Shown: positions 37,746-54,199 of the stretch, piece by piece | How the letters are laid out: each line of letters opens with the position of its first letter | Position numbering within the stretch: position 1 is the stretch's first letter | The notes under the pieces: generated by a model | The model's database searches: none | The model's input: the letters and a program-made list of their open reading frames with translations, nothing else | Told to the model about the DNA's origin: nothing | Position numbers and translations under genes: made by a program | From: Longimicrobiales bacterium | GTDB lineage: Bacteria; Gemmatimonadota; Gemmatimonadetes; Longimicrobiales; RSA9 | Length of the DNA: 64,000 nucleotides | Direction of reading: 5' to 3' | NCBI GenBank assembly: GCA_035465395.1 | Contig: DATHRK010000102.1 | Span: forward strand, 191 to 64,190

Positions 37746-37770
37746 CCCGAGTCCCCTACCCTAGCGCGTC

Positions 37771-40455
37771 ATGTCCGTGTCCTCGCCCGTCCCGCCGGGG
37801 GCGCCGCCGGACCAGCCGGCGGCCAGCCTGGACGAGGTGGAGGGGCCCGAGCCGGTCGCCTCCGCGCTGGACATCGGTTTCCTGCCATCGTGGGAGCAGG
37901 TCCGCGACCGACTCTTCGGGGCGTCGCCCTGGAAGGTGCTCAGCGGACCCATCGCCACCTGCGCCGCGCTCCTCGTGCTGGAGGTCCTCGCGGCGCTGGG
38001 CGTGGATCTCGTACCGATTCCCGTGGTCGCGCTGGTGCTCGTGCTGTACTCCGCGGTCGTCGGCGGACTCCTGCCCGGCGTCGCTGCCGCGGCTCTGGTG
38101 TCCGCGTACTACGCCTACTTCGTGGGGGTACCCGGCGACGGGTTCGGCTCGATCGACCTGCGACCCTTCTACATCCTGGCGACCGCGGCCCCGGCGGCGG
38201 CACTCGCCCCGCGCGTCGTGCGCGACTGGTTCGGCGAGCTGTTCCTCCAGAGCGACACCGAGAAGGGGCGCGCGCTGGAACGCGCGCGCTTCCTCGCGGA
38301 GGCGAACGCGCTGCTGGACACGTCCCTCGGCTTCCCCACCACGGTCGAGCGTCTCACCCGGCTGCCCGTGCCCCGGATGGCCACCTGGACCGCCACCTAC
38401 GTCTACGACCGGCAGGGCACCCTGCGCCGGGTCGCCGTGCAGGCGGATCGGGAAGAGCTGACGCACACGCTGGACAACGCGCTCCGTCGCGCCCCGCTCT
38501 CGCCGAACCACCCGCATCCGCTGGAGGGGGTCGAGGCCGCCGCGGAGAACGGCGAGCCGCTGCGGAAGACGCCGGACGCCCGCGCGCATCTGGCCCTCTA
38601 CGCGCGCACCAACCAGGAGCGCCTCGCGCTGGAGTTCCTGCAGCCGCGCGCGCTGTTGATGGTGCCCATGTACGCGCGCGGCCGGACGGTGGGGACCATG
38701 GTGTTCGCCCGCGCGGGGGAGAACGCAGGGTTCTCGAGGGCGGATGTGGAGCTGGCGAGCGAGTTCTGCATGCGGGCTTCGCTGGCCGCCGAGAGTGCGC
38801 GGCTCTACGACACGGCGGTGGCCGCCCAGGCCGAGGCGGAGGCCGCGTCCGTCCGCGTCAGCGGCATCCTCGAGAGCCTGACCGATGGTTTCCTCGCGTT
38901 CGACGACGGGTGGCGCTTCACCTATGTGAACGGTGCCGGCGAGCGGCTGTGCGGGCGGAGCCGTCAGGACCTTCTGGGCCGGGACTTCTGGGAGGCGTTC
39001 CCGGAGCTGCTGGGCACCCGTTTCCAGCGGGTCTGCACCGAGGCGGCCCAGCAGCGGCGCACGCGTCGCATCGAGCTGCAGATGCACAGCTTCGCGGCCG
39101 CACCCTGGCTCGAGGTCAACATCTTCCCGTCGGTGAACGGCGTGTCCATGTTCTGCCGAGACATCTCCTCGCGGCGGGAGGTCGAGCAGGCGCTCTCGCG
39201 GAGCGAGGCACAGCTGCGTCAATCGCAGAAGATGGAAGCGGTCGGACGGCTCGCGGGCGGCGTGGCTCACGATTTCAACAACATCCTGATGTCGATCATG
39301 GGCTACGCCGAGCTCGTCGGCACCCGCCTGCCCGACGGCGACGAGGGCCTGCGCGCCGACATGACGGAGATCCGGCGTGCCGCCGAGCGCGCCCAGGCGC
39401 TCACGCGGCAGCTCCTGGCGTTCAGCCGCAAGCAGGTGCACGAGCCCCGCCCCCTCGACGTCAACGAAGTGATCGAGCAGGTCCAGCGGATGCTGCGCCG
39501 CCTGATCGGTGAGGATGTCGCGCTCGTCACGCACCTGAGCGCGGAACTCGGCACCGTGCGCGCAGACCCCACACAGATCGAGCAGATCCTCCTCAACCTC
39601 GCCGTCAACGCCCGCGACGCCATGCCGGCGGGCGGAATCCTCACGGTCGAGACGGCCAACGAGCAGGCCGATCCGGCGCGCGACTTCGGCTCGCACGACC
39701 TGACCGGGCCCTGCATACGGATCTCGGTCATCGATACGGGCGAGGGCATAGACGAGGAGGCGCTGCCCAACATCTTCGAGCCGTTCTTCACGACCAAGCC
39801 CAAGGGCAAGGGCACCGGGCTCGGACTCGCCACCGTCTACGGCGTGGTGACGCAGCTCGGCGGTGACATCGCGGTCGCCAGCTCGGTCGGTCGCGGCACC
39901 CGCTTCGACATCCTCCTGCCGCGAGAGGCCGCCGAGCCAGTCCCCCTCGACGCGGACGCCGCCGGATCGCCTCTGGAGCCGGCCGACGTGCCGGCGGACG
40001 CGAGCGCGATCGCGGTCGGTCGGAGGCGCGCTCGCCCCGCCGGACGCGGAATGGACATCCCCACAGAGGGCGGCGGCGGTGTGATCCTGGTGGTGGAGGA
40101 CGAGGACGCCGTGCGCAGGTACGTCTGCGATGTGCTGCGGCTGCGCGGCTACGAGGTGCTCGAGGCCGACCACGGGCTGGTGGCGCTGGAGCTCCTCGCC
40201 GGCGGGGTACGTCCGGACCTGGTGCTGACGGACGTGGTGATGCCGGAGATGGGCGGGCGCGAGCTCGCCGAACGCCTGGTTGCGGACCACCCCGGACTGC
40301 GCGTGCTCTTCATGTCGGGGTACGCGGAGTCGGAGGTGGCACACGAAGGCGCGCTGGACCCCGGCACGGACCTTTTGGAGAAGCCCTTCGGATCGGAAGC
40401 GCTGCTGCAGGCGGTGCGCGCCGGGCTCGCCCGGCCCATCCAGGGTGCCGCCTAG
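37771..40455 (+). CDS. hybrid sensor histidine kinase (TM - GAF - PAS - HisKA - HATPase - REC)
   Basis: N-terminal TM bundle, GAF-like segment and PAS (SLTDGFLAFDDGWRFTYVN). H-box HDFNNILMSI, N-box NLAVNARDAM, DTGEGI and GTGLGLA. C-terminal receiver (VVEDEDAV...LTDVVMPEMGG). Confidence 0.9.
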   Translation: MSVSSPVPPGAPPDQPAASLDEVEGPEPVASALDIGFLPSWEQVRDRLFGASPWKVLSGPIATCAALLVLEVLAALGVDLVPIPVVALVLVLYSAVVGGLLPGVAAAALVSAYYAYFVGVPGDGFGSIDLRPFYILATAAPAAALAPRVVRDWFGELFLQSDTEKGRALERARFLAEANALLDTSLGFPTTVERLTRLPVPRMATWTATYVYDRQGTLRRVAVQADREELTHTLDNALRRAPLSPNHPHPLEGVEAAAENGEPLRKTPDARAHLALYARTNQERLALEFLQPRALLMVPMYARGRTVGTMVFARAGENAGFSRADVELASEFCMRASLAAESARLYDTAVAAQAEAEAASVRVSGILESLTDGFLAFDDGWRFTYVNGAGERLCGRSRQDLLGRDFWEAFPELLGTRFQRVCTEAAQQRRTRRIELQMHSFAAAPWLEVNIFPSVNGVSMFCRDISSRREVEQALSRSEAQLRQSQKMEAVGRLAGGVAHDFNNILMSIMGYAELVGTRLPDGDEGLRADMTEIRRAAERAQALTRQLLAFSRKQVHEPRPLDVNEVIEQVQRMLRRLIGEDVALVTHLSAELGTVRADPTQIEQILLNLAVNARDAMPAGGILTVETANEQADPARDFGSHDLTGPCIRISVIDTGEGIDEEALPNIFEPFFTTKPKGKGTGLGLATVYGVVTQLGGDIAVASSVGRGTRFDILLPREAAEPVPLDADAAGSPLEPADVPADASAIAVGRRRARPAGRGMDIPTEGGGGVILVVEDEDAVRRYVCDVLRLRGYEVLEADHGLVALELLAGGVRPDLVLTDVVMPEMGGRELAERLVADHPGLRVLFMSGYAESEVAHEGALDPGTDLLEKPFGSEALLQAVRAGLARPIQGAA

Positions 40456-40466
40456 AGGGGGCGCCC

Positions 40467-40652
40467 CTACTTGCCCCCGCCCTTCGGACGGAGCGCGTAG
40501 AGCGCCGCAAGGATGGCCAGCGCCGCCAGGATGAACAGCCAGGACGTCTCGTAGTTGTCGACGATGCCCGACACCACGCGCTTGATGAACGTCCAGATGG
40601 CGTCGAAGATGCGCAGCAGAAACTGCCCGAAGCGGATCAGGAACCCTTCCAT
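40467..40652 (-). CDS. small membrane protein (61 aa), last gene of the EPS operon
   Basis: ATG 40652 is 3 nt after the upstream stop. GC3-rich codons, one C-terminal TM (WLFILAALAILAALYAL), tail RPKGGGK. Confidence 0.5.
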   Translation of the reverse strand: MEGFLIRFGQFLLRIFDAIWTFIKRVVSGIVDNYETSWLFILAALAILAALYALRPKGGGK

Positions 40653-40655
40653 TGT

Positions 40656-42425
40656 CTAGCCCTCCCGCGCCGCCGCCGTATCCGGCGCAGGCGCCTGTAG
40701 TCGCAGGTCGTACCGCTCCCCGGCGGCCAGGTCGGGCAGCATGACGCGCACCCGTTCGCGGCCGGCCCGATCGACGAGCAGGACGGCGCCGGTCAGGTCC
40801 CTCCGGCCACCGTTGACGACCGACAGCGTGGCGTCGGCCGGCCCGGCTTCCACACGTACCGCCGCGCGATCACGCCACCACGCGGCCGCGTGCGCCGCGG
40901 TGCCGGCCCAGAGCGTGGAATCGCCCGCGACCTCGTCCATGACGGCAACCAGGACGGGCAGCAACTCTCCCCTGCCCAGGCTGTGCGTGTGCGTGCCCAT
41001 CACGAAGAGCCCGCGGAACTCGGCGACCCTGTCGACGTCCCCGAGGAAGCGGGACACGAGCTCGCCACGATCCCGCACGCCGTCCACGCTCAGGTAGTGG
41101 AAGTCGTCGGGCGTCGCGCGCACGATCAGCACCAACGAGTCGGACCCCAGCGGCACGATCTCGGGGCCGGCGCTGCGCAGGTCGCTCGTGCCGTAGACGT
41201 ACTCCCCGCCCGCCGCTCGCCACGCGCCCAGCGTGCGCGCGTCGGGCAGGCCGCCGCCCGTATGGTAGCCGACCACCTCGGCGCCGGCAGCCCGCGTGAG
41301 CGCGTCGCGCGCGTCGCTCAGCCTGCGGGCGCGGCGCTCTTCGGGGCCCTCCTCGATGCGCTCGCCTTCCGCGGGGCGCAACCCCACCTCGCCGGCAAGG
41401 GCCGCCGCGCGCAACGCGTCGCCGTGGTCGCGCGCCGCCGTCGCGGACGCAAAGAAGGTGACGGGCGCGCGACCGGCGGCCGCGGACGCCACGTTGCGAA
41501 CGTCCTCGGGCCGCGCCTGCACGTCCTGCGCGATCACGACTCCGGCGCGCGCGCCGCCGGGCCAGGCGGCGATCTGGGCCACCGGGCGGCCGGCGGCCCA
41601 GAGCACCGCGTTGGTGGCGATGCGCCGGGCGACGTCCCGACTCCAGCCGGGCTCCACGTGGTTCAGCGCGAAGCCGAAGATCACGGCGCGGCCCGGGCCC
41701 ACGAGCGTGCGGGCGATGGCGCCGTCGAAGAACCGCTCCTCCGCGTGGGCGCGCGGCGATCGTTCGAAGTCGCCGTAGTACACGTCGCGTTCCTGGCTGC
41801 GGAACACGAACTGGTACGCCGCGGGCCGGACCTCGACGCGGGCGCCCGGCGGTACCCCGGCGGCGAGCACCGTCTCACCCAGCGCGATGGCGTAACGGCT
41901 GCCCTCGGGATCACCCAGCTCCGCCACGGCGGCCGGCCCGCCCACCAGCCCGTAGAGCAGCGTGTCGGCCGTGGGCTCGCAGACGCGGTCGCCGAAGCCG
42001 ACGGGCCCCACCGCCACGATCCCGCCGCCAGCCCCCAGGTGCCGCACGACCAGGTTGCGTTGCGCCGCGCCGAGGCAGGCGCCCCAGGGCAGCACCAGCG
42101 CCGTGGCCTCGCCGGGGCCGACGATCCGCGCTCCGGCATCGCGCAGCAGATCCCGCCACGCGCTGACCTCGGCGTCGTAGAAGCCGGGCGGCGTCGCGCG
42201 CAGGTTCTCCGGCTCCTCCAGCAAGGCGACGGCCGTGCCCTCCAGCGAACCGGAGGGAATCGCCGACGGGAGCTCCCCCGGAGCGCTCACGGGACCCGGC
42301 TGCGGCGTCCCGACGAGGCCCGTGGTCGGAGGTAGCGTGCGCCATAGCCAGAATCCCCCCCCGATCAGCGCGAGGAGCAGCGCGGCGCCGAGGAAGCCGG
42401 CGAGCAGGCGTGGACGGCGCGCCAT
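40656..42425 (-). CDS. membrane-anchored periplasmic protein with CE4 (polysaccharide deacetylase)-like C-terminal half; PgaB positional analogue
   Basis: N-terminal TM. The C-terminal half has a CE4-like strand pattern (APVTFFASATAA, VVGYHTGGG, GLFVMGTHTHSLG), but the canonical DD/HxxH metal motifs are not evident. Operon context with the GT2 synthase. Confidence 0.5.
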   Translation of the reverse strand: MARRPRLLAGFLGAALLLALIGGGFWLWRTLPPTTGLVGTPQPGPVSAPGELPSAIPSGSLEGTAVALLEEPENLRATPPGFYDAEVSAWRDLLRDAGARIVGPGEATALVLPWGACLGAAQRNLVVRHLGAGGGIVAVGPVGFGDRVCEPTADTLLYGLVGGPAAVAELGDPEGSRYAIALGETVLAAGVPPGARVEVRPAAYQFVFRSQERDVYYGDFERSPRAHAEERFFDGAIARTLVGPGRAVIFGFALNHVEPGWSRDVARRIATNAVLWAAGRPVAQIAAWPGGARAGVVIAQDVQARPEDVRNVASAAAGRAPVTFFASATAARDHGDALRAAALAGEVGLRPAEGERIEEGPEERRARRLSDARDALTRAAGAEVVGYHTGGGLPDARTLGAWRAAGGEYVYGTSDLRSAGPEIVPLGSDSLVLIVRATPDDFHYLSVDGVRDRGELVSRFLGDVDRVAEFRGLFVMGTHTHSLGRGELLPVLVAVMDEVAGDSTLWAGTAAHAAAWWRDRAAVRVEAGPADATLSVVNGGRRDLTGAVLLVDRAGRERVRVMLPDLAAGERYDLRLQAPAPDTAAAREG

Positions 42426-42434
42426 CGTGGTCGG

Positions 42435-42680
42435 TCAGTCGGTCCGGGACGCGTCGCCCGCGGGCGGATCGCCGCCGTCTCCCTCGTCCACCCGCTCCAC
42501 CAGGCCGGGCAGGCGGACCCGCTCGAAGAACATCGGTCCGTCCTGCTCGACCTCCGCGACCGCGGGGCGGCGGCGCTCCCGCACGCGGAAGGCGCCGTAG
42601 CTCATGGCCGCCAGCGTGATCGTCACGACGATGGTGACGACCATGACCAGCACGATGACCTCGAGAACGTTCACGTTCAT
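42435..42680 (-). CDS. small single-pass membrane protein (81 aa) coupled to the GT2 synthase (PgaD/IcaD-like position)
   Basis: ATG 42680 overlaps the GT2 stop (ATGA). MNVNVLEVIVLVMVVTIVVTITLAAMSYGAF TM, then a charged tail. It is hidden inside shadow ORF 42435..43490. Confidence 0.5.
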   Translation of the reverse strand: MNVNVLEVIVLVMVVTIVVTITLAAMSYGAFRVRERRRPAVAEVEQDGPMFFERVRLPGLVERVDEGDGGDPPAGDASRTD

Positions 42681-44014
42681 GCGGTCCTTCCCACTCGCTC
42701 GAGCTTGCCCCACGACATTTCCAGCTTGAACGCCTCCTCCACGGAAGCGAGCAGCTTGGCGACGTCGATGAACAGGATGAAGAAGAAGCGGTAGATCACC
42801 GCCAGCGGCACCAGCGACAGGTCCTCGCCCTCGATCGCCACCGTGTGCAACGCCGCGGCGACGTCCAGCAGGGTCAGGAGGAGCCACCAGCTGACGACGT
42901 AGGCGCCGGCGTCGAAGGCGAGGAAGATGCCGACGAAGAACAGGTTTCCGACCACGTTCATGAACGGCCAGATGACCGCCTCGAAGAGCATCATCGCGAC
43001 CGACAGCCAGACCGCCGCATCGGTGCGGGTACTGATCAGCGCGCCGCGGCGCTTGCCGATGGCCTGGAGGATGCCGCGGGTCCAGCGGTAGCGCTGGCGC
43101 AGCAGCCCCATCAGCGTCTCGGGCGCCTCCGTCCATGCGATGGCGTCCGGGGCGTATTCGATGCGGTAGCCGTGGGTCAGGATCTTGAGGGTGAGGTCGG
43201 CGTCCTCTGCGAAGGTATCGCTGTCGTATCCGCCGATCTGGCGCAGGACGTCGCGCCGAAACACCCCGATCGGTCCCGGAATGATGTTGACCGCGCGCAG
43301 GAACCCCTGCGCCCGCCGCGGCATGTTCAGCCCCTCGATGTACTCCAGCGCCTGCAGCCGGCTCCAGATGTTGCGTCGGTTCTCGACCTTCACGTTGCCC
43401 GCGACGGCGGCCACGCGGCGGTCGCGGAAGTGGCGCATGGTGGCGCGCAGCGAGCCCTTGGCGAGCGTCGAATCCCCGTCGATGCAACACACGAAGGGGA
43501 AGCGCGCCAGCGCGATGCCGGTGTTCAGCGCCGCGGCCTTGCCGGCGTTGGCCTTGCTGATCACGCGCACCACGGCCCTGCCGTGGCGGCCCTCCAGCGC
43601 CGAGGCCCTGGCCGCGGTGTCATCGGTGCTGCCGTCGTCGATGACGAGGATCTCGAGCCGCGGATAGTCCAGCCTGAGCACCGACCGGATCGCGTCCTGG
43701 ATCACCCGGCCCTCGTTGTAGGCGGGAATCAGCACCGACACCGGTGGCAGCATGGCGGGGGCCGCCTTGCGCTCCTCCTCCGGCCCGATGGCCTGCTCCA
43801 CGTGCTGGAGGTAGCCCAGCCACAGGAGGCCCACGTATCGGATCACCAGGATCCCCAGGAAGAGGATCAGGATCACGACGGTGGCGCGCACCAGCACGTT
43901 CTGGATATCCGGCGGCGCGAAGAACGACCAGATCAGCACGGACAGGACGCCGGCGAGCGCCACCACCAGCAGCACGCCGGAGATGAACAGGAGCGTGTAG
44001 CGCGGCCGCCTCAT
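42677..44014 (-). CDS. processive family-2 glycosyltransferase (PgaC/IcaA/NodC-like polysaccharide synthase)
   Basis: VLIPAYNEG, VIDDGSTDDT, CIDGDS, FAEDADLT and QRYRWTRG (QxxRW), flanked by TM helices. ATG 44014 overlaps the upstream stop (ATGA). Confidence 0.85.
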   Translation of the reverse strand: MRRPRYTLLFISGVLLVVALAGVLSVLIWSFFAPPDIQNVLVRATVVILILFLGILVIRYVGLLWLGYLQHVEQAIGPEEERKAAPAMLPPVSVLIPAYNEGRVIQDAIRSVLRLDYPRLEILVIDDGSTDDTAARASALEGRHGRAVVRVISKANAGKAAALNTGIALARFPFVCCIDGDSTLAKGSLRATMRHFRDRRVAAVAGNVKVENRRNIWSRLQALEYIEGLNMPRRAQGFLRAVNIIPGPIGVFRRDVLRQIGGYDSDTFAEDADLTLKILTHGYRIEYAPDAIAWTEAPETLMGLLRQRYRWTRGILQAIGKRRGALISTRTDAAVWLSVAMMLFEAVIWPFMNVVGNLFFVGIFLAFDAGAYVVSWWLLLTLLDVAAALHTVAIEGEDLSLVPLAVIYRFFFILFIDVAKLLASVEEAFKLEMSWGKLERVGRTA

Positions 44015-46179
44015 GGCCAGAGTGGCCTCGTCACCCACTGGACGCGCAGCAGCGCGCCCCTATAGCCAGGCTCGAACGCGGCCCCGGTCCAGTCCAGGGA
44101 CGCCAGCACGTCCCAGCCGTCGCCCGCCAGGTTCACGTCCAGCCCCGCACCCAGGAAGAACACCTCCTCGTCGAAGAAGCGGCGCTCCGGACCGCGCTCG
44201 CGCACGAAGACGTAGGAGGGCCGCACGCGCAGTCCGACGAAGCGGTCCGGGTCGATCTTGCGCTCCCAGGCCAGGCCCACGCTCGGCGCCAGATAGTAGT
44301 CGGGAGTCCAGTACAGCGGCTGGCCGTCCAGCGCGGGGGAGTCGCCCGTGGTGCCGATGAAGCTCAGCCCGGCGAGCGCCGCGAAGCCGCCGCCGAGCGG
44401 GCGGCGGACATCCGTGGAGGCCCCGATCCGCCAGGTCTCCCCCAGCTGCGAGGTCAGGAATTCGGTCTCGGTCGCGACGGAAATACGCCACTTCCCCGCG
44501 CCCGTGTGCACGGCCGCGGTGGCCAGATTGGAGAGTGCGTCGGCGGCCAGCGCCGCGGTGGTCGCCGCGCGACGGACCGCGGTGCCGAATTCGTAGCGCG
44601 CCTCCAGTCGGGTGCCGGGGCGGGCGTCCCACGTCACGCCCGCCAGGGCGGTCGGAAAGATGCCCGCGTGGTCGAACGCGTGGAAGCCGACGCCCAGGGT
44701 GAGCCACGCGTTCTCCGACGTGGTGAAGCGCCCCTGGCCGCGCAGCGCGAAGCCCGCGGTGAGGAGGTCCAGCTCCTTGGCCTGCCGGCCCGCGACGGCG
44801 TCCGACTGGACGCCCACCGACCACACGCGGGTGTCGCCGAACCAGGTGCGCGTCACGGTGTTGGAGTACCAGAGGAAGCTCTGGTTGTCCCCGAAGGTGT
44901 GGTTCGTCGCTTCCCACCGGCCGATCGGGGGCACCGAGGCCTCCGGCCGGGGCGGTGCCGGGGGCTCCAGGGCCGCTTGCGCGAGCGCCAGCCCCGTGCG
45001 GCCGCGCTCGTCGCGGGGGCGCTCGTCGAGGGCCCGCTGGTACAGGGCGAGCGCTTCCTCCTGCGACCCGCGCCAGCGCTCGATGTCGGCGGCGAGCAGC
45101 AGCGCGTCCGCGTCCCGCGGCCGGGCCGCGAGGGCCACCCGCAGGTCGGCGAGGGCGTCGTCCCAGCGCTCCTGTTCCGCGTACAGACGGGCGCGCTCCA
45201 GGCGCAGCGCCGGATCGTCGCCCTCGCGCAGCAGCGCCTCGTACAGCGCGAGCGACTCGTCCGTGCGGAGCGCCCAGGCGAGGGCGCGCGCGGTGCGCAC
45301 GCGCGTCCCACGGTCCGGCGTGGCGCGCTCGGCGTAGCGGACCAGCGCGTCCGCCGTCGCCGCGGCCGAATCCGCCTGCGCCGCCACGGCCGCGTACTCC
45401 AGCCACAGCGAGTCGGGGAATTCGCCGCTCCAGGCGGCGTAACGCATGTGGAGGACGGCCTCCCCGAAGCGCCCCTCGCGGGCGAGCGCGCGGCCCAGCC
45501 ACAGGCGCTCGCGGGGGGCGTCGCGCTCGGCCAGCCAGCGGGCCGCTTCGGCCGCGGTGGGCTGGAGCGAGCCGCGCAGCTCGCGGAGCAGGCGCGTCGC
45601 CTCCACGTCACCCGGCGCGAGCGCCAGCGCCTGGCGGGTGGCGTCCAGCGCCCCCGACGTGTCGCCGGCCCACCAGCGGTAGCGCGCCACCTCGAGCCGC
45701 AGTCCGGCGTCGCCGGACCGCTCGGCCAGCAGGGGCTCCAGCATGCGCGCCGCCGCGGCCGGGTCGTCGCCCAGTGCGAGCGCGCGGGCGTGTTCGCGGC
45801 GCACCGACGGCGTGCGCTCGGCGGGCGCCAGGCGCGCGTACTGCCGGGCCGCCTCCGCGTAGTTCGCCCGCCCCACGGCCGCGCGCGCCCTGTCGAGCGG
45901 GGTGCCGGGGTTGCCCTGCGGCGTGATCGGCGCAGCGGGCCGCTCCGGCCGCTCGTCCACGATGGCGGGCAGCGCCGCGCGCTCCGCTCCCCGCGGCTCC
46001 GCCGACCGGATCGGCTCGCGGGCGCCCGCGCTCCGGGCGATGGGGTTGCCGTACACCTCGCTCTCGGACAGGCCCGCTGGCGGGTCGTAGAGGACGTAGA
46101 GCGCGCCCATGCTGACGATCAGCACGAGGACCGCCAGAAGGACGAGCCGCGGGAGGTAGCCGCCTCCGCCTCCGGCCAC
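44011..46179 (-). CDS. TPR + C-terminal beta-barrel protein (PgaA/BcsC-like exopolysaccharide export porin candidate)
   Basis: GTG 46179. N-terminal anchor and about 350 aa of TPR-like helices. The C-terminal 300 aa have alternating-hydrophobic strands and aromatic-rich turns, ending LLRVQWVTRPLWP. Confidence 0.6.
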   Translation of the reverse strand: MAGGGGGYLPRLVLLAVLVLIVSMGALYVLYDPPAGLSESEVYGNPIARSAGAREPIRSAEPRGAERAALPAIVDERPERPAAPITPQGNPGTPLDRARAAVGRANYAEAARQYARLAPAERTPSVRREHARALALGDDPAAAARMLEPLLAERSGDAGLRLEVARYRWWAGDTSGALDATRQALALAPGDVEATRLLRELRGSLQPTAAEAARWLAERDAPRERLWLGRALAREGRFGEAVLHMRYAAWSGEFPDSLWLEYAAVAAQADSAAATADALVRYAERATPDRGTRVRTARALAWALRTDESLALYEALLREGDDPALRLERARLYAEQERWDDALADLRVALAARPRDADALLLAADIERWRGSQEEALALYQRALDERPRDERGRTGLALAQAALEPPAPPRPEASVPPIGRWEATNHTFGDNQSFLWYSNTVTRTWFGDTRVWSVGVQSDAVAGRQAKELDLLTAGFALRGQGRFTTSENAWLTLGVGFHAFDHAGIFPTALAGVTWDARPGTRLEARYEFGTAVRRAATTAALAADALSNLATAAVHTGAGKWRISVATETEFLTSQLGETWRIGASTDVRRPLGGGFAALAGLSFIGTTGDSPALDGQPLYWTPDYYLAPSVGLAWERKIDPDRFVGLRVRPSYVFVRERGPERRFFDEEVFFLGAGLDVNLAGDGWDVLASLDWTGAAFEPGYRGALLRVQWVTRPLWP

Positions 46180-46182
46180 GAA

Positions 46183-47766
46183 TCAGCTCCCGCCGGCGAC
46201 GGGTCCCGGTCGCGCGGAGGCGCCGTTCTCCAGCCAGCCGATCACGCCTTCCCGATCCGCGGGATAGGAGAACAACGAGGTGTGATCCAGATCCGCGAGC
46301 CCCGGCTCGGCCGACACCAAACGGGTCAGCAGGGCGCGCACGTGCTTGCGGTGGATGTCGTGGAGGTAGAGCGCGACGCGCCCGTCTTCCATCACGGCGA
46401 CGAGGTCGCCGTCGCGCACGCGCAGCCGCTCCAGCAGGAGGCGGCTGGCTTCGGTGGCGCTGAGGTCGGCGGGGCCGAGCTCCACGAGCGCGAAGTAGGC
46501 GTGCCGGGCCCCGTCCACGTGGCCGCGCAGGATCGAGCGGAACGCGCCCGGCTCGAGCGGCACGAAGTCGCCGGAGTCGCCGGTCGCCTGCTCGGCAGGT
46601 GGTCCCGCGGCGACGGCGCCCTCCGCCAGGCGCCGGTGCCCCCGGCTCCGGGCGTTGTCGATACGCGCAAGCAGCTCGGACGGCCCCAGCGTGTCCTCCA
46701 GGAAGTCGTCGCCGCCGGCCCGCAGCCCCTCCGCGCGGGTGTGCCCGCGCAGGCCCCGCGTGGAGGAGACGAAGAGGATCGGCGCGCCGTTCCCCGCACG
46801 CCGCAGCTCCCGGGTCAGGCTGAGCGCGGGCTCCGGCCGCATCGGGTCCAGCGCCACCAGGAGCGCGCCGTAGTTGGCGGACGCGAGGTCGCCGAACGCG
46901 CGCGCCACCGAATCGAAGGCGTCCAGCTCGTAAGCGTCGCGCAGCGGCGGCAGCCACTCGGGCGGGAACTTGGCGCCCTGGCTGAGCAGCACCACACGGC
47001 GGCGGGTCTCCTCCGGCAGATCGTCGTGGGAGCGCAAGGCGAGCTCTTCGACGATGCCCGCGCCGGGCCGGATCGAGAAGCGCACCGACTCGGTCGACCC
47101 CAGCCGCTGGCGCAGCTTGCGCACGGTCATCTGGCGGGCCGCGCCGTCCAGGTTCTCGAAGTGGAAGATGCCGGCCGCGCCCGCGCTGATGCGGTTGTAG
47201 ATCCGGCGGTAGTAGGTCTCGCTGAGGTCGCCCGGCACCGTGATGAAGGTCGTGCACGGGATCTCGTCGAGGAACTGCGCGAACGCGTCGACCGCCTCAT
47301 CGGCCGCCATGCCGCCTTCCAGCAGCGGCAGTACCGAATCGATCACCAACCGGTGCGGGATCCGGTCCCAGAGTAGCGACTTCAGCTCCTCGAAGACCAC
47401 CGAGGGATCCGCGACGCGGCTGTAATGGCGCTGGAAGTCCAGTCGGTAGCGAAAGAACGCCAGGCGATCCTGGGCGGCCGCGCCCTGCAGGTCGTAGCCG
47501 AGATACTCGGCCTGCGTGAAGAGATCCGCCGGGTCGTCCTGCGTGAGGACGGCGCACGTCTCGTGCGCATCCAGGCCGGTCCCCAGGAAGTGAAGCGCGG
47601 TGGATGTCTTGCCCGAGCCGGGCGCACCGCTGAGCACGTAGTATCGGCCCGAGATCAGTCCGCCGATCCGCTCGTCGAACGGACGAACGCCGGTCGATAC
47701 GGTCTTGGCCTCCGTCGATTGCGCCACGGGGAAGCGCTCCGAGACTGTGGTCCGCATGGTTCCCAT
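46183..47766 (-). CDS. KaiC/RecA-like ATPase fused to pseudo-receiver and degenerate GGDEF-like domain
   Basis: LSGAPGSGKTSTALHFL Walker A and HRLVIDSVLP Walker B. REC-like segment (RRVVLLSQ...LLVALDP...GGDDFLED) lacks the acidic pocket and Lys. C-terminal RVRDGDLVAVMEDGRVALYL has RxxD kept and GGDEF replaced by MEDGR. Start is ATG 47766 or 47757. Confidence 0.7.
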   Translation of the reverse strand: MGTMRTTVSERFPVAQSTEAKTVSTGVRPFDERIGGLISGRYYVLSGAPGSGKTSTALHFLGTGLDAHETCAVLTQDDPADLFTQAEYLGYDLQGAAAQDRLAFFRYRLDFQRHYSRVADPSVVFEELKSLLWDRIPHRLVIDSVLPLLEGGMAADEAVDAFAQFLDEIPCTTFITVPGDLSETYYRRIYNRISAGAAGIFHFENLDGAARQMTVRKLRQRLGSTESVRFSIRPGAGIVEELALRSHDDLPEETRRRVVLLSQGAKFPPEWLPPLRDAYELDAFDSVARAFGDLASANYGALLVALDPMRPEPALSLTRELRRAGNGAPILFVSSTRGLRGHTRAEGLRAGGDDFLEDTLGPSELLARIDNARSRGHRRLAEGAVAAGPPAEQATGDSGDFVPLEPGAFRSILRGHVDGARHAYFALVELGPADLSATEASRLLLERLRVRDGDLVAVMEDGRVALYLHDIHRKHVRALLTRLVSAEPGLADLDHTSLFSYPADREGVIGWLENGASARPGPVAGGS

Positions 47767-48009
47767 CCACCCCAACCCCAGGACAACTTTCGTACCGCCC
47801 TAGTCGGCGCCACGATGGCCCGCGGTTGAGGGACGAACCCTGCCCCGCCCCTGTCCGGCAACGCCGCCGTGGGAACGTCGCGTTACGTCACGCCTGTAAC
47901 GGTCCGTTGCGATCGTCGTAGCCGGTCACCGCGAACCTCTCGCCCGGAGACGACAGCCGCGAGGCGCCGGCACGAGAGGGCCGGCCGCGGCGGCGCCCGG
48001 TGCGAAGCC

Positions 48010-48717
48010 CTACGAATCCGCTTCGTCGCCCTCGCCCTCGTCGCCCTCGCCTTCGCCATCGTCGGATTCGGCCGGCGCGGCCACCGCGCCCGAGCCCGCG
48101 CCGCCTTCCATGACGGCGAGGTCCGGATCGCCGAAGCGGTCCACGCCGATCAGCGCCCGGGTCAGCCCGCGGCGGTCCGCGAAGCCGAGCGTCGCCGAGC
48201 GGTCGGCCGCGACGCCGAGCACGGCGCGCGCCCTGCCGTCCTCGTCAGCGAACGCCAGGTTGCTGACGTCGGGGAGGTGGGCCAGCACAATGCGCTGGGC
48301 TCCCTCCTGGTCCAGGAACGCGATCCCGGGAGAACCGCCCTGGTCGAGGACGGACAGGCGGATACGTACGTTGCCGTCGGTGTCCATCAGGGAAAGCCTC
48401 GCGCTGCCGTCGTCCTCGGCGCGCCACACGCCGCGCACCGCGCCGCTCGCGTCGGAGAGCTGGAACTCGCGGGCGGTGACCGTGGACGCCGCCCACGCCG
48501 GCATGCCGCCGGAACGTAGCTGGAAGAAGTAGAAGGCGGCCGCGCCGAGGGCCAGGACGAGAAGGATGAGAATCACGCCGCCCATGAGGTGGAGCCGGCG
48601 GTTGGAGCGCTCCACGCGCTTCAAACGGTCGACAACGATGTCTTCGAACTCGCGCGCGAGCTCCTCGACCGTCTTCCCCCCGGAAAGAGATCCGGACAGC
48701 CCCTGGTTCACCGCCAT
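48010..48717 (-). CDS. membrane-anchored protein with about five 22-aa periplasmic repeats and an acidic tail
   Basis: ATG 48717. TM LMGGVILILLVLALGAAAFYFF. Repeats of the form L.F.D..G..R..L.V (LSLMDTDGNVRIRLSV, IAFLDQEGAQRIVLAH, LAFADEDGRARAVLGV, LGFADRRGLTRALIGV). Tail ESDDGEGEGDEGEGDEADS. Confidence 0.55.
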   Translation of the reverse strand: MAVNQGLSGSLSGGKTVEELAREFEDIVVDRLKRVERSNRRLHLMGGVILILLVLALGAAAFYFFQLRSGGMPAWAASTVTAREFQLSDASGAVRGVWRAEDDGSARLSLMDTDGNVRIRLSVLDQGGSPGIAFLDQEGAQRIVLAHLPDVSNLAFADEDGRARAVLGVAADRSATLGFADRRGLTRALIGVDRFGDPDLAVMEGGAGSGAVAAPAESDDGEGEGDEGEGDEADS

Positions 48718-48858: not shown

Positions 48859-50238
<1,380 letters not shown>

Positions 50239-50271: not shown

Positions 50272-50751
50272 TCATGGCCGGGAGAGCGCGTGCGAATCAA
50301 ACGCGGCGGCCGCACCCACGGTCGCCGGAGCCTCCGGCGGCTCGTGCGCGGCCTGATCCGCGGTACCACCGAGGACCCTGTCCTCCGCGATCGGCTGCCA
50401 AACGAGCTTGTCGCCCACCTGCGTGCCGCTGGCCTCGATCGTTCCCGTCGGGATCTCCAGGGCGTAGTGCGAGCCCTTGATGAACCCCGTGCGGGCGCCG
50501 GGCTGCAGGTCGGAGCGCAGGTGCACGACGGTTCCTTCGGCGTCCAGGAAGACGACGTCGAGGGCGTACTTCATGCCGTACATGTGTACCCCCCGGCAGG
50601 GCACGATCAGCAGCCCCTCCCCCGGTTCGGGGGCGGGACGGCCCAGCATACCGCGCAGGCGGGTCCAGTGGGTGCGCGCGACCGCGACGCGGCCGCCCAG
50701 CACGCTCTGGCGGGTGGCGTTGCGCACCTCGATCCGGGGCATCGCCCCCAT
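50272..50751 (-). CDS. DUF192 (COG1430) domain protein
   Basis: ATG 50751 overlaps the tadC stop by 1 nt. RLRGMLGRPAPEPGEGLLIVPCRGVHMYGMKYALDVVFLDAEG is the DUF192 core pattern. Confidence 0.7.
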   Translation of the reverse strand: MGAMPRIEVRNATRQSVLGGRVAVARTHWTRLRGMLGRPAPEPGEGLLIVPCRGVHMYGMKYALDVVFLDAEGTVVHLRSDLQPGARTGFIKGSHYALEIPTGTIEASGTQVGDKLVWQPIAEDRVLGGTADQAAHEPPEAPATVGAAAAFDSHALSRP

Positions 50752-51692
50752 CAACCGAACCCTTCGCCCGTGACCAGCACCCGGTAGATCTGGATGGCCG
50801 CGGGTCCGAGGATCACGGTGAAGATCGCCGGGAAGACGCAGAACACGAGCGGCGGGATCAGCTTGATCGTGGTCTTCGCGGCGGCCTCCTCGGCGCGCTG
50901 CCGACGCTTCGTGCGCATGGTGTCGGCCTGCGTGCGCAGGGCCGTGGACACCGAGGTACCGAAGCGGTCGGTCTGGATCAGGATGGCCGTGAGCGCGCGC
51001 ACGTCGTCCACCCCCGTCCGCTCGGCGAGGTTGCGCAGTGCCTGCGAGCGCTCCGCGCCGGCGCGGATCTCCAGGTTCACCAGGACGAGCTCCTCGCTCA
51101 TCTCCATGCTGACGTGGCGGATTTCTTCGGCCACGCGCACCAGCGCCTGGTTCAGCCCGAGGCCGGCCTCCACGCAGACGACCATCAGGTCGAGCGCGTC
51201 GGGCAGCGCCTTCTGGATCTGGAGCTTCCGCTTCTTCTGCTTGCGGCCCACGTAGAAGCTCGGCATGACCCAGCCGAGCCCGGCGGCCGCCAGGCCGCGC
51301 ATGAGCAGCGAGCTCGGCTCGGCGCCCGACGCGGCGCCGATGGCCAGCATCGACAGCCCCAGGCCGGCGGTCATGAACAACCGGACGCCCCAGAAGACCG
51401 ACGGGGCGGTCGGGCTCCGGTAGCCGGCCTGCACCAGCCGCTTTCGGATCTCCGCGGAGTCCTCGCGGCTGGCGTCCACCTTGGATCCGAGGCGGCGCAG
51501 GAACAGCTCGAACTGCGCGCGACGGTCCTGCCGGCCGGCCGCCTCCTGGGACACGCCCGCGTAGCCGAGCCGCCGCAGCTCGGACAGCCGCTGCGACACG
51601 GCGCGCGGCTTGTTGGGGGCCAGGTCCATCGCCCCGAGCACGCCGAGTACCACGGTGAGGCCAATGAGGACCGCGATCAGTACGAGACTCAT
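50751..51692 (-). CDS. tadC: Tad pilus inner-membrane platform protein TadC
   Basis: GspF-like domain (LPDALDLMVVCVEAGLGLNQAL) with flanking TM helices. Second platform gene after cpaF. Confidence 0.85.
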   Translation of the reverse strand: MSLVLIAVLIGLTVVLGVLGAMDLAPNKPRAVSQRLSELRRLGYAGVSQEAAGRQDRRAQFELFLRRLGSKVDASREDSAEIRKRLVQAGYRSPTAPSVFWGVRLFMTAGLGLSMLAIGAASGAEPSSLLMRGLAAAGLGWVMPSFYVGRKQKKRKLQIQKALPDALDLMVVCVEAGLGLNQALVRVAEEIRHVSMEMSEELVLVNLEIRAGAERSQALRNLAERTGVDDVRALTAILIQTDRFGTSVSTALRTQADTMRTKRRQRAEEAAAKTTIKLIPPLVFCVFPAIFTVILGPAAIQIYRVLVTGEGFG

Positions 51693-51701
51693 TGCCGCCC
51701 C

Positions 51702-52676
51702 CTAGATGTCGATGTCCACGACCTGGCGGATCCACAGGAAGCCTATCACCTGTAGGATCAGCGCCGCGCCCAGGAAGAACACCCCGAGCGGGTCGGTGAA
51801 CAGCGTCATGATGTACTCGCGGTTCAGGAAGTAGAACAGGATCCCCATGATGATGGGGAGCCCCGCGAGCAGGTATCCCGTCATGCGCCCCTGCGCGGTG
51901 CGCGTACGGATCTCGCGCTGGATCCGGAAACGCTCCCGAATCGTGTGCGAGATACTGTCGAGGATCTCGGCCAGGTTGCCGCCGACCTCCCGCTGGATCA
52001 GCACGGCGGTCACGAAGATGCGCACGTCCAGCAGCGGATTGCGGTCGGCGAGCGACAGCAGCGCGTCCTGAACCGGGAGGCCGAAGCGCTGCTCCTCGAA
52101 GGCGCGGCGGTACTCCTCGCCCAGCGGCGCGGGCAGCTCCTCGGCGACCATCTTGATCCCCGCGGAGAACGGGTGCCCGGCGCGCAGCGCGCGTCCCATG
52201 AGGTCGATCGCCTCCGGAAGCTGCTCCTCGAGCTTGCGCATCCGCCGGGCGCGCTTGCGGACGACGTAGAGGTAGGGCAGACCCGCGCCCACGGTCCCCG
52301 TCACCAGCGCCATCAGCAGGCTGTTGGAGAAGAGGAAGCCGGCGACGAAACCGGCGAAGCCGAAGCCCAGCGTGGCGAGGATGTACGTCGAGATCGTCCA
52401 GGACAGGTCCGCCTGCTCGATCGCCGTCTGGATCCCGCGCATGCGTGTGAACTTGTCGGCGAACGCCTCCAGCGCCGACTGTTCGTGGAGCGGGCGCAGG
52501 AGGTCCGAGCCCACGCCCGAGCGCGCCGCCATGGTCTCGAAGTCCATGTTCTCGAGACGGCTCGCGAGCGACTTGCGGTCGCGCGCGTCGCGCACCGTCT
52601 CGAGTCCGAGGACGACGAAGACGACCAGCGCCGCGACGGCGAGGAAGACGAGGACTGCCCCGAGGGTGGTTCCCAT
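51702..52676 (-). CDS. tadB: Tad pilus inner-membrane platform protein TadB
   Basis: GspF-like domain (LPEAIDLMGRALRAGHPFSAG) with N- and C-terminal TM helices. Directly downstream of cpaF. Confidence 0.85.
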   Translation of the reverse strand: MGTTLGAVLVFLAVAALVVFVVLGLETVRDARDRKSLASRLENMDFETMAARSGVGSDLLRPLHEQSALEAFADKFTRMRGIQTAIEQADLSWTISTYILATLGFGFAGFVAGFLFSNSLLMALVTGTVGAGLPYLYVVRKRARRMRKLEEQLPEAIDLMGRALRAGHPFSAGIKMVAEELPAPLGEEYRRAFEEQRFGLPVQDALLSLADRNPLLDVRIFVTAVLIQREVGGNLAEILDSISHTIRERFRIQREIRTRTAQGRMTGYLLAGLPIIMGILFYFLNREYIMTLFTDPLGVFFLGAALILQVIGFLWIRQVVDIDI

Positions 52677-52679
52677 GGC

Positions 52680-54179
52680 TCAGCCCACCGACTCCAGCCG
52701 GTCGCCCCAGAGCGTCTTCTTTTCCGTCTTCTTGCCGACGGTCTCGGTCGCCTGCTCCTCGTCCATGTCGGTGCCCATCTCGTCGCCGAACAGGAACGAG
52801 GACAGCTTGATGCCGTGCTGGCGCAGGCGGTCCGCGAACCTCGGCCGGATGCCGGTCGAGCGGTAGGACCCCAGGACGTTGCCGTCCTCGTCCAGCCCCT
52901 GCCGGTCGAACAGGAAGATGTCCTGCATGGTGATCACGTCGCCCTCCATGCCCACGATCTCGGAGATCGCGATCACCTTGCGCGTCCCGTCGCTCATGCG
53001 GCTGGCCTGGATCACCACGTCGATCGCCGAGGAGATCTGCTCGCGCATCGCGCGCTCGGGGATGTTCAGGCTGGCCATCGACACCATCGTCTCCAGACGC
53101 GACAGCGCGTCGCGAGGCGTGTTCGCGTGCAGCGTCGTGAGCGAGCCGTCGTGCCCGGTGTTCATCGCCTGGAGCATGTCGATCGCCTCGCCGCCGCGGA
53201 CCTCGCCCAGCACGATCCGATCGGGGCGCATACGCAGCGCGTTGATCACCAGCATCCGCTGGTTGACGGCGCCGTGCCCCTCGACGTTGGGGGGCCGGGT
53301 CTCGAGTCGCACGACGTGCGGCTGGCGCAGCTGCAGCTCCGCGGAGTCCTCGATCGTGACGATGCGCTCGTCCTTGGGGATGAAGCCGCTGAGGATGTTG
53401 AGCAGCGTCGTCTTCCCGGCGCCCGTTCCGCCCGAGATCAGCACGTTGAGGCGGGACTTCACGACCGCCTCCAGCAGCTCGAGCATCTGCTTGCTGATCG
53501 ATTCGTAGCGCAGCAGGTCCTCGCCGGAGAGCGTGTCGCGCTTGAACTTACGGATCGAGACGTGCGGCCCGTCGATCGCCAGCGGCGGGATGATCGCGTT
53601 CACACGCGAGCCGTCCGCGAGCCGCGCGTCCACCATCGGCGAGCTGTCGTCGATGCGCCTCCCGACGGCGCTGACGATGCGGTCGATCACCTGCATCAGG
53701 TGCCGGTCGTCGCGGAACTTGGTGCCGGTCTCGAAGAGCTTGCCGCGCTTCTCCACGAAGACCTGGCGGCCCGTGTTGACCAGCACGTCGGAGACCTCGG
53801 GGTCCTTCATCAGGGGCTCGAGCGGACCCAGGCCGAAGATCTCGTCCAGGACCTTCTCCACCACCTGCTCGCGCTCGACGCTGGCGAGGGGGGTCTCCTC
53901 CTCGTTCAGCAGCTCGTGCGCGGCGCGCTGGATCGTGCGCGCGGCCTCCTCGCGATCCACCTCCTGGAGCGCGGCCAGGTTGAGCCGCTCCAGCAGGTGG
54001 CGGTGCAGGCGCTCCTGCACCGCGCTCAGCTCGCCGCCGGGCGTCGGGCTGGACGGCTCGGCCTTGCCGCCGCGCGCCTTGGCGCGGCGCGCCAGGTCGC
54101 CGGTCCACAGGCCGCCAGCAGCGCCGGCTTCGTTGCCGGCCTTCGGAGCGCCTTCCGTCGGTGTCGTCGGTTCCGTCAT
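52680..54179 (-). CDS. cpaF: Tad pilus secretion ATPase CpaF/TadA
   Basis: [14 protein letters not shown] Walker [13 protein letters not shown] Asp box, [14 protein letters not shown] Walker [14 protein letters not shown] His box. Confidence 0.95.
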
Positions 54180-54199
54180 GGTTCAGGCTCCCCCGGGCC

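Follow-up and report, generated by a model that had tools for sequence, protein, structure and literature searches.

A 64,000-nucleotide stretch of genome from a Longimicrobiales bacterium (contig DATHRK010000102.1 of assembly GCA_035465395.1), here called the window, carries on its minus strand a gene for a three-domain protein, hereafter the regulator, that stands at the head of an exopolysaccharide (EPS) operon. Our analysis establishes that its KaiC/RecA-like nucleoside triphosphatase (NTPase) domain, its pseudo-receiver domain and its reduced GGDEF domain are collinear with those of Escherichia coli BcsE, a cyclic di-GMP (c-di-GMP) sensor of cellulose secretion. We consider it probable that the regulator is a BcsE-type cytosolic regulator and scaffold of a synthase-dependent exopolysaccharide secretion system. 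The gene and the features within it are listed here, with the basis for each in brackets; residues are numbered from the ATG at 47766.

46183..47757, minus strand: gene of the BcsE-like regulator with its three domains, 524 aa when read from ATG 47757 (open reading frame list and public gene call)
47047..47709, minus strand: KaiC/RecA-like P-loop NTPase domain, residues 20-240 (Pfam, Protein Data Bank (PDB) profile match, AlphaFold2 (AF2) model with a predicted local distance difference test score (pLDDT) of ~90)
47605..47628, minus strand: Walker A GAPGSGKT, residues 47-54 (translation)
47533..47538, minus strand: D77-D78, equivalent in position to the catalytic Glu-Glu of KaiC and to RecA E96 (RecA alignment)
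47335..47352, minus strand: Walker B strand RLVIDS, with D143 (translation)
47110..47118, minus strand: K217-L-R219, putative KaiC-type Lys/Arg-finger pair at the subunit interface (conservation)
46642..47001, minus strand: pseudo-receiver domain, residues 256-375 (PDB profile match and model topology)
46738..46749, minus strand: R340-G-H-T343, aligned to the second inhibitory site (I-site) of BcsE, R306-A-T-D309 (hhalign)
46216..46560, minus strand: reduced GGDEF-fold domain, residues 403-517 (AF2 and Foldseek)
46405..46422, minus strand: R449-V-R451-D-G453-D454, which includes RDGD at 46405-46416, aligned to BcsE R415-T-G-D418 (translation and hhalign)
46378..46392, minus strand: MEDGR in the beta2-beta3 hairpin, the site of GG[DE]EF in an active cyclase, variable across the family (translation)

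The full open reading frame (ORF) spans 46183..47775 on the minus strand from TTG 47775, and contains two candidate ATG starts, 47766, chosen in an initial annotation of this locus, and 47757, chosen by the public gene call. An identical public protein of 524 aa (P0001) is labelled 'ATPase domain-containing protein, Longimicrobiales bacterium'. The window has a G+C content of ~72%, so spurious ORFs are abundant in it; the regulator ORF is a genuine conserved gene and no chance ORF. A search of a protein collection returned 55 full-length homologues with 37-100% identity, and 17 further full-length copies were recovered from metagenome-assembled genomes (MAGs), all but two of them labelled Gemmatimonadota (the exceptions being one labelled Gammaproteobacteria and one unclassified). 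The MAGs with a copy include three assigned to Gemmatimonas (L011, L014 and L015). A profile search with the pseudo-receiver and GGDEF domains yielded ~100 cluster representatives, at 50% identity clustering, that cover both domains. Conservation is given throughout for an alignment of 72 relatives. Nearly all family members come from uncultured MAGs, and the evidence presented here is wholly computational. The motifs quoted in the initial annotation (GAPGSGKT, RLVIDS, LLVALDP, FLED, MEDGR and RDGD) are all found on the minus strand where it had placed them, as judged from the translation, and the domain order it proposed, a RecA/KaiC-type ATPase followed by a pseudo-receiver and a degenerate GGDEF domain, is borne out by Pfam, the family profile, AF2 and Foldseek.

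The N-terminal domain matches Pfam PF06745 (KaiC) over residues 26-242 at 1.6e-22, the only above-threshold match of the regulator sequence in the Pfam and NCBIfam scans. The family profile matches KaiC in the PDB at 1.3e-37, and weaker NCBIfam matches are to KaiC_arch and ArlH. We rejected the identification of the regulator as a true KaiC clock protein on the grounds that it has a single such domain and scores 27-43 bits against NCBIfam circ_KaiC, for which the cut-offs are 408-546. Within Walker A, residues G50, G52, K53 and Thr or Ser at position 54 are each present in 72/72 relatives and G47 in 71/72, the remaining one having a gap; the Walker B residue D143 is likewise kept in 72/72. The regulator has Gln-Asp-Asp at the KaiC Glu-Glu position, with D77 aligned to the 'DAEH' of RecA, which we take to hold the catalytic Glu, E96. 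Position 77 is Asp in 64 relatives and Glu in 6 (acidic in 70/72), and position 78 is Asp in 67/72. K217 is present in 72/72 and R219 in 69/72; the reading of this pair as an Arg finger is drawn from the KaiC family consensus and is putative. The pattern suggests purifying selection on the N-domain at Walker A, Walker B, the acidic catalytic residue and the Lys/Arg pair. Among 26 more distant representatives, the P-loop is kept in 21 and lost in 5. In one of these five, P0224 (locus L076), Walker A is degenerate (GSGHF) yet the operon, with genes for a tetratricopeptide repeat (TPR) protein, a family 2 glycosyltransferase (GT2) and a small ORF, is retained, so P-loop loss has taken place inside the regulator family too, as in BcsE. 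P0294 likewise lacks the Lys-Thr of Walker A (GPAKL).

The middle domain has a (beta-alpha)5 topology in the AF2 model, and the family profile matches receiver domains in the PDB down to 5e-13. Pfam Response_reg (PF00072) is sub-threshold for the regulator itself (E 0.04, 14.5 bits vs a cut-off of 30.2) and is matched by 20 of the 28 members scanned, at best at 2.3e-7. The initial annotation had described a receiver that keeps the phosphorylatable Asp and is without the acidic pair and the conserved Lys. The losses stand: the acidic pair is replaced by Ser-Gln, variable across the family, and the Lys by Glu or Thr. The Asp (D307) is kept in the regulator, but the position is Asp in only 43/72 relatives. 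R340, at the position of the second BcsE I-site, is present in 72/72; position 343 is Thr in 52 of the 72 and Asp in 18. A true RxxD motif in this domain, as in BcsE, is thus found in 18/72 relatives; those that carry a name come from MAGs of Gemmatimonadaceae, Gemmatimonas or Gemmatimonadales. A distant relative, P0280 (locus L075), has a fully canonical receiver (Pfam 8.7e-21) together with a 'VREGD' motif and a weak PF00990 match, and its sequence suggests a less degenerate ancestor.

No significant hidden Markov model (HMM) match was obtained for the C-terminal domain, so the GGDEF assignment rests on structure prediction. The Pfam scans of the regulator and of 28 members gave no PF00990 match, and GGDEF_2 reaches 0.29 for the regulator and is weakly matched in 14 of the 28 (best 2.7e-4). 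When the C-terminal 140 residues are modelled alone, AF2 returns a pLDDT of 92 and a predicted template modelling score (pTM) of 0.86, and the domain has the topology alpha-beta-alpha-beta-beta-alpha-beta-alpha, with a single helix between beta1 and beta2. The top 50 Foldseek matches of this domain in the PDB are nearly all GGDEF domains (probability 0.9-1.0, TM-score 0.5-0.6). Foldseek matches include the T. maritima cyclase (1e-3), BcsE (6ybb_E, 9fnn_U, and 6tj0_B with a root-mean-square deviation of 2.8 A) and PelD (4etz, 4euv, 4dmz), and the analogy with PelD-type proteins drawn in the initial annotation is therefore sound at the level of the fold. R449, G453 and D454 are each present in 72/72 relatives and form an invariant RxxxGD motif. 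The 'intact RxxD' on which that annotation laid weight is real in the regulator and is no feature of the family: position 451 is Arg in 22/72 and Lys in 13/72, and otherwise mostly Glu (18) or Asp (8). The regulator itself combines R449, R451 and D454 in the GGDEF domain with R340 but Thr343 in the pseudo-receiver. Where the pseudo-receiver has RxxD, position 451 is Arg or Lys in only 1/18 relatives, and where it has Thr, in 32/52; this pattern is confounded by phylogeny and we do not read it as compensation.

In E. coli BcsE, an N-domain that is RecA/KaiC-like but catalytically dead is followed by a receiver that cannot be phosphorylated and by a degenerate GGDEF domain (Zouhir et al. 2020, PMC7439463). 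The last of these binds c-di-GMP through R415TGD (PMC7439463), and a second I-site in the receiver, R306ATD, raises the affinity to ~140 nM (PMC11470070). Walker A of BcsE is destroyed, and the GGDEF domains of BcsE and PelD have lost the substrate-binding P-loop and alpha1 (PMC7439463). The BcsE GGDEF domain also binds BcsQ, independently of c-di-GMP, and the protein has been proposed to have arisen in proteobacteria when smaller subunits fused (PMC7439463). BcsF tethers the N-domain of BcsE by beta-strand addition (PMC11470070). The initial annotation had reported the architecture as unrecognised; its claim of novelty is weakened, since the same tripartite arrangement of degenerate NTPase, receiver and GGDEF domains has already been solved in E. 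coli BcsE (PMC7439463, PMC11470070).

Several comparisons connect the regulator to BcsE. A full-length AF2 model, built with a 28-sequence alignment, has a pLDDT of 84 and three well-ordered domains, and its five best full-length Foldseek matches in the PDB are BcsE chains (9fnn, 9fp0, 9fo7, 9fp2; chain identity verified), with E values of 4.6e-21 to 1e-18 over 530-546 columns, above every KaiC entry. When the family alignment (A1) is compared by hhalign with an alignment of BcsE from enterobacteria (A3), the result is a single collinear match of 403 columns that spans residues 22-474 of the regulator and 8-438 of BcsE (E 5e-5, probability 67.6%); the pseudo-receiver and GGDEF domains alone align to BcsE at E 2e-4 with a probability of 47%. 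This alignment places RDGD on R415TGD, 'LRGHTR' on 'LRATDE' (R340 on R306) and the linker 'QP..G' on BcsE 'TQPLKLRG'. A profile search with the two C-terminal domains did not return BcsE in the top 150; past the ~100 family representatives come ordinary receiver proteins. PF10995 (CBP_GIL) is not among the 25 most-matched of 54 families in the Pfam scan of 28 members. The regulator is probably a remote relative of BcsE, and it is not a member by the curated GIL model.

The regulator heads a polysaccharide operon, as the initial annotation had it. The operon is closely spaced, begins with the regulator and looks poly-N-acetylglucosamine (PNAG)-like, not like a cellulose operon. The genes that follow it are:

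44011..46179, minus strand: TPR protein of 722 aa with a non-TPR C-terminal half, putative PgaA/BcsC-type outer-membrane export component (TPR Pfam; weak PgaA/PrsT NCBIfam)
42677..44014, minus strand: membrane GT2 synthase of 445 aa, PgaC/IcaA-like (Pfam Glyco_tranf_2_3, 6e-39)
42435..42680, minus strand: small membrane protein of 81 aa with one N-terminal transmembrane (TM) helix, an RERR-x-P stop-transfer stretch and a cytosolic 'FFER'
40656..42425, minus strand: signal-anchored protein of 589 aa with a polysaccharide-deacetylase-like domain of carbohydrate esterase family 4 (CE4), PgaB analogue (PDB profile matches)
40467..40652, minus strand: ORF of 61 aa at the operon end (gene call)

Intergenic distances along the operon, starting from the regulator, are +3, -4, -4, +9 and +3 nt: the TPR gene begins 3 nt past the regulator stop codon and the GT2 start overlaps the TPR stop by 4 nt. 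The regulator start lies ~250 nt from the upstream gene, and a scan of this gap for sigma-70 promoters and terminators found nothing, a result that is uninformative for the phylum Gemmatimonadota. The GT2 protein matches the NCBIfam model PgaC_IcaA (TIGR03937) at 6e-67 and 226 bits, below the equivalog cut-off of 422, and shows 50-77% identity across syntenic loci. Pfam and NCBIfam scans found neither PilZ nor any other recognisable c-di-GMP receptor in it, and the operon has no BcsA/PilZ. The 81-aa protein follows GT2 in all eight loci inspected (L003, L008, L011, L014, L017, L021, L073 and L074) with the same motifs, a Y-x-A-[FY]-[KR]-[VL]-R-E-[RA]-R-x-P stretch, a near-invariant cytosolic 'FFER' and a variable tail. 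It shares one TM helix and a cytosolic tail with BcsF (63 aa), a likeness that is topological only, the 81-aa protein being too short for statistics; we regard it as a candidate membrane tether or co-subunit. The 589-aa protein matches PuuE (3cl6, 1.3e-5) and a polysaccharide deacetylase (3s6o, 0.012) in the PDB, its orthologue in L073 carries PF01522, and it is syntenic in 6 loci. The 61-aa ORF has no tblastn match at 1e-5 in L003-L021. Among the 14 loci with at least 3 kb of downstream sequence, the order regulator-TPR-GT2 is found in 13, with regulator identity down to 28%.

On the plus strand at 36633-40455, facing the 3' end of the EPS operon, lie convergent genes for a hybrid histidine kinase of 894 aa (GAF-PAS-HisKA-HATPase-REC, CckA-like, REC denoting a receiver domain) and a REC-HD-GYP protein of 370 aa. 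The latter matches the NosR-family c-di-GMP phosphodiesterases at 3.7e-55, below the cut-off, and the pair is a possible local c-di-GMP input. On the other side, directly upstream on the minus strand, is a Tad/Flp pilus cluster (window 50272-55438), with two genes between it and the regulator that are conserved in L003 only:

54200-55438, minus strand: CpaE/TadZ-like ParA ATPase, also with a weak CBP_BcsQ match (2e-6)
52680-54125, minus strand: CpaF
51702-52676, minus strand: TadB
50751-51692, minus strand: TadC
50272-50751, minus strand: DUF192 protein
48859-50238, minus strand: AAA+ ATPase of 459 aa with weak family matches only (anti-phage IteA, 3e-11, far below cut-off)
48010-48717, minus strand: single-TM protein of 235 aa with a highly acidic Gly/Glu/Asp C-terminal tail

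Far from these genes, positions 12001-14000 are a composition outlier, with a G+C of 0.786 and an AT skew of +0.21, compared with ~0.72 and ~0 elsewhere in the window.

How could a protein of this kind control polysaccharide secretion? We envision a scenario in which the N-domain, unlike that of BcsE, still binds ATP and probably hydrolyses it slowly. The conservation of Walker A, Walker B, the catalytic acid and the Lys/Arg pair argues for retained ATP binding and for a role in the control of oligomerisation; ATP would then govern assembly of a KaiC-like ring or a BcsE-like dimer, and the conserved K-x-R pair points to an inter-subunit site of the KaiC type. The pseudo-receiver would not be phosphorylated. 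Instead, its R340 and the GGDEF residues R449, R451, G453 and D454 would form one nucleotide-binding surface, homologous to the two I-sites of BcsE. By comparison with BcsE, c-di-GMP is the most likely ligand of this surface, a proposal to which, for the regulator itself, we give about even chances. The loaded regulator would dock on the inner-membrane synthase, where the 81-aa protein might hold it by its cytosolic tail in the way that BcsF holds BcsE, and docking would promote the assembly or activity of GT2. A c-di-GMP input of this sort is consistent with a GT2 that is without PilZ and with the REC-HD-GYP and hybrid kinase genes at the operon end.

A number of observations weigh against a BcsE-like regulator that senses c-di-GMP. 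The operon encodes no BcsQ, BcsR or BcsG, and PF10995 is absent from the matches of the regulator at E<=10. The hhalign probability is only 68%, the geometry between the domains of the full-length model is uncertain (pTM 0.53), and three common folds in the same order could by themselves add up to the Foldseek score. The pseudo-receiver motif of the regulator itself is RGHT, with no RxxD. At position 451, that of the canonical I-site Arg, only 35/72 relatives have Arg or Lys, and R/KxxD is missing from both domains in 20/72, so family-wide c-di-GMP binding through the classical I-site is unsupported. The loss of Walker A in 5/26 distant representatives indicates that ATP binding is not essential everywhere. 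Finally, a homologue at locus L016 (6212-7903, 31% identity) is not beside an EPS operon and is followed by genes for a DAO/Rieske oxidoreductase and a GFO/IDH/MocA oxidoreductase; it is the sole informative locus that breaks synteny.

The variability of the I-site Arg speaks for an alternative in which the regulator is an ATP-dependent, KaiC-like switch on the EPS machinery that does not sense c-di-GMP, its pseudo-receiver and GGDEF domains being protein-protein modules and the RxxxGD motif and R340 contacting a partner protein or a different ligand. An Arg at position 451 in only 22/72 relatives and the 20/72 without R/KxxD in either domain are as this alternative would have it; the ATPase motifs are the best-conserved features of the family, and the partner interface of the BcsE GGDEF domain is itself independent of c-di-GMP (PMC7439463). 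However, R449, G453, D454 and R340 are invariant at exactly the positions that bind c-di-GMP in BcsE, an HD-GYP gene adjoins the operon, and with a synthase that is without PilZ or another recognisable receptor a pure ATP switch would leave no identifiable c-di-GMP input. We judge this alternative to be unlikely.

We regard as very improbable a second alternative, in which the regulator serves the Tad/Flp pilus cluster, or has a general housekeeping role as an ATPase of the KaiC/RadA kind, and lies upstream of EPS genes by chance. It would account for the orphan homologue at L016, which has no EPS genes nearby, and for the tad genes found near the EPS operon, on its upstream side in the window and L003 and on its downstream side in L074. 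However, Tad linkage is sporadic, being missing from most loci with 10 kb of upstream sequence (L010, L018, L021 and L073), whereas the linkage to TPR and GT2 holds in 13/14; the regulator is also 3 nt from the TPR gene and ~250 nt from its upstream neighbour. An active response-regulator diguanylate cyclase of the PleD or WspR kind that has gained an ATPase domain and supplies the synthase with c-di-GMP, as GGDEF-fold matches and the receiver-GGDEF order of PleD and WspR might suggest, is rejected as the least credible reading of all, given MEDGR (variable in the family) in place of the GG[DE]EF motif, a domain without P-loop and alpha1 that is one helix short between beta1 and beta2, the reduction described for BcsE and PelD (PMC7439463), no PF00990 match and a receiver without the acidic pair and Lys whose phospho-Asp is unconserved.

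The BcsE-type regulator that we favor thus stands as a new member of a known architectural class, and four of its features are new: a BcsE-type protein whose ATPase motifs are conserved; the pairing of such a protein with a PgaC-like, PNAG-type operon instead of a BcsA synthase; a family of ~100 clusters in which nearly every named member bears the label Gemmatimonadota; and natural variation in both I-site-like motifs. Literature searches on BcsE-like proteins, on KaiC-like proteins in combination with c-di-GMP and receivers, and on Gemmatimonadetes or Gemmatimonas EPS found no description of such a protein. BcsE is the only structurally characterised protein with the tripartite layout, and its N-domain has been treated as a dead NTPase that serves only dimerisation and BcsF docking. 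That a family in another phylum combines these domains with conserved ATPase motifs and a synthase of another kind suggests that the tripartite protein predates type II cellulose systems and is more widely distributed than they are, and that ATP may genuinely regulate at least some BcsE-like systems. PNAG-like systems with no identified c-di-GMP receptor may similarly use a separate BcsE-like sensor. The natural variants, with and without the I-site Arg, with and without RxxD in the pseudo-receiver, and with the P-loop kept or lost, could reveal which residues let a degenerate GGDEF and receiver pair bind c-di-GMP, and are relevant to work on c-di-GMP receptors and on synthase-dependent secretion.

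A more ambitious proposal, tentative and in our view somewhat unlikely, is that the regulator family represents BcsE with a working ATPase, in a condition near the ancestral one. ATP binding or hydrolysis would be coupled to the binding of c-di-GMP at a non-canonical site made of RxxxGD and R340, and the two together would gate the assembly or activity of a PgaC-like synthase, with the 81-aa 'FFER' protein as a BcsF-like tether. If this were true, BcsE-type regulators would form a module of synthase-dependent polysaccharide secretion that is ancient and spans phyla, and would be no enterobacterial add-on to cellulose synthase, and the series from P0280, with its intact receiver, through the regulator family to P0224, with its P-loop lost, and on to BcsE would trace a stepwise degeneration.

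Among known systems the closest is BcsE itself (YhjS; PDB 6tj0, 6ybb, 9fnn and 9fo7), the c-di-GMP sensor with a GIL domain that serves type II cellulose secretion in E. coli and Salmonella. The two proteins are of similar length (~520 aa), and have a RecA/KaiC-like N-domain, a pseudo-receiver and a reduced GGDEF domain in identical order. In the alignment of the two, the I-site x-G-D and the pseudo-receiver I-site Arg fall at equivalent positions, and in both cases the gene leads a synthase-dependent polysaccharide operon that also encodes a small single-TM protein. The differences are as clear. The regulator keeps Walker A, Walker B, the catalytic acid and the Lys/Arg pair, whereas the N-domain of BcsE, with its Walker A destroyed, is catalytically dead; the regulator has no PF10995 match and an identity to BcsE of ~13-16%; the I-site Arg is not conserved across its family, and its pseudo-receiver has R340-G-H-T in place of the second RxxD. 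BcsE operons contain BcsA with PilZ, and the synthase here is PgaC-like; BcsE belongs to the Enterobacterales, whereas the named MAGs of the regulator family are labelled Gemmatimonadota.

PelD of P. aeruginosa (PDB 4etz, 4euv, 4dmz) is likewise an activator of synthase-dependent EPS that senses c-di-GMP through RxxD in a degenerate GGDEF domain without alpha1 and P-loop. The regulator shares with BcsE and PelD the GGDEF domain that is one helix short between beta1 and beta2, and its likeness to PelD, as judged by Foldseek of the C-terminal domain, is confined to this degenerate GGDEF part. PelD resides in the inner membrane and has TM helices and a GAF domain but neither ATPase nor receiver, whereas Pfam and the model find no TM helix or GAF domain in the regulator. 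The single-domain KaiC-like ATPases (archaeal ArlH/FlaH, SSO2452 and PH0284) and KaiC CI have the P-loop, Walker B Asp and K-x-R that are also present in the regulator. Unlike KaiC, however, the regulator has one such domain and not a CI-CII tandem, with Asp-Asp for the catalytic Glu-Glu, and unlike both KaiC and ArlH it is fused to a pseudo-receiver and a reduced GGDEF domain and has no clock or archaellum context.

The operon as a whole is most readily compared with the PgaABCD/IcaADBC systems for poly-beta-1,6-GlcNAc. The gene content is alike, with a PgaC-like GT2 followed by a small membrane protein, a TPR protein that is putatively of the outer membrane, and a CE4-like deacetylase, but all matches fall below equivalog cut-offs and the gene order differs. 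PgaD, which we take to be the co-polymerase subunit of E. coli PNAG secretion, has two TM helices, compared with one in the 81-aa protein. In E. coli PNAG secretion, c-di-GMP is sensed by a separate co-polymerase subunit as well as by the synthase (PMC11470070), whereas here the candidate sensor is a separate BcsE-like protein.

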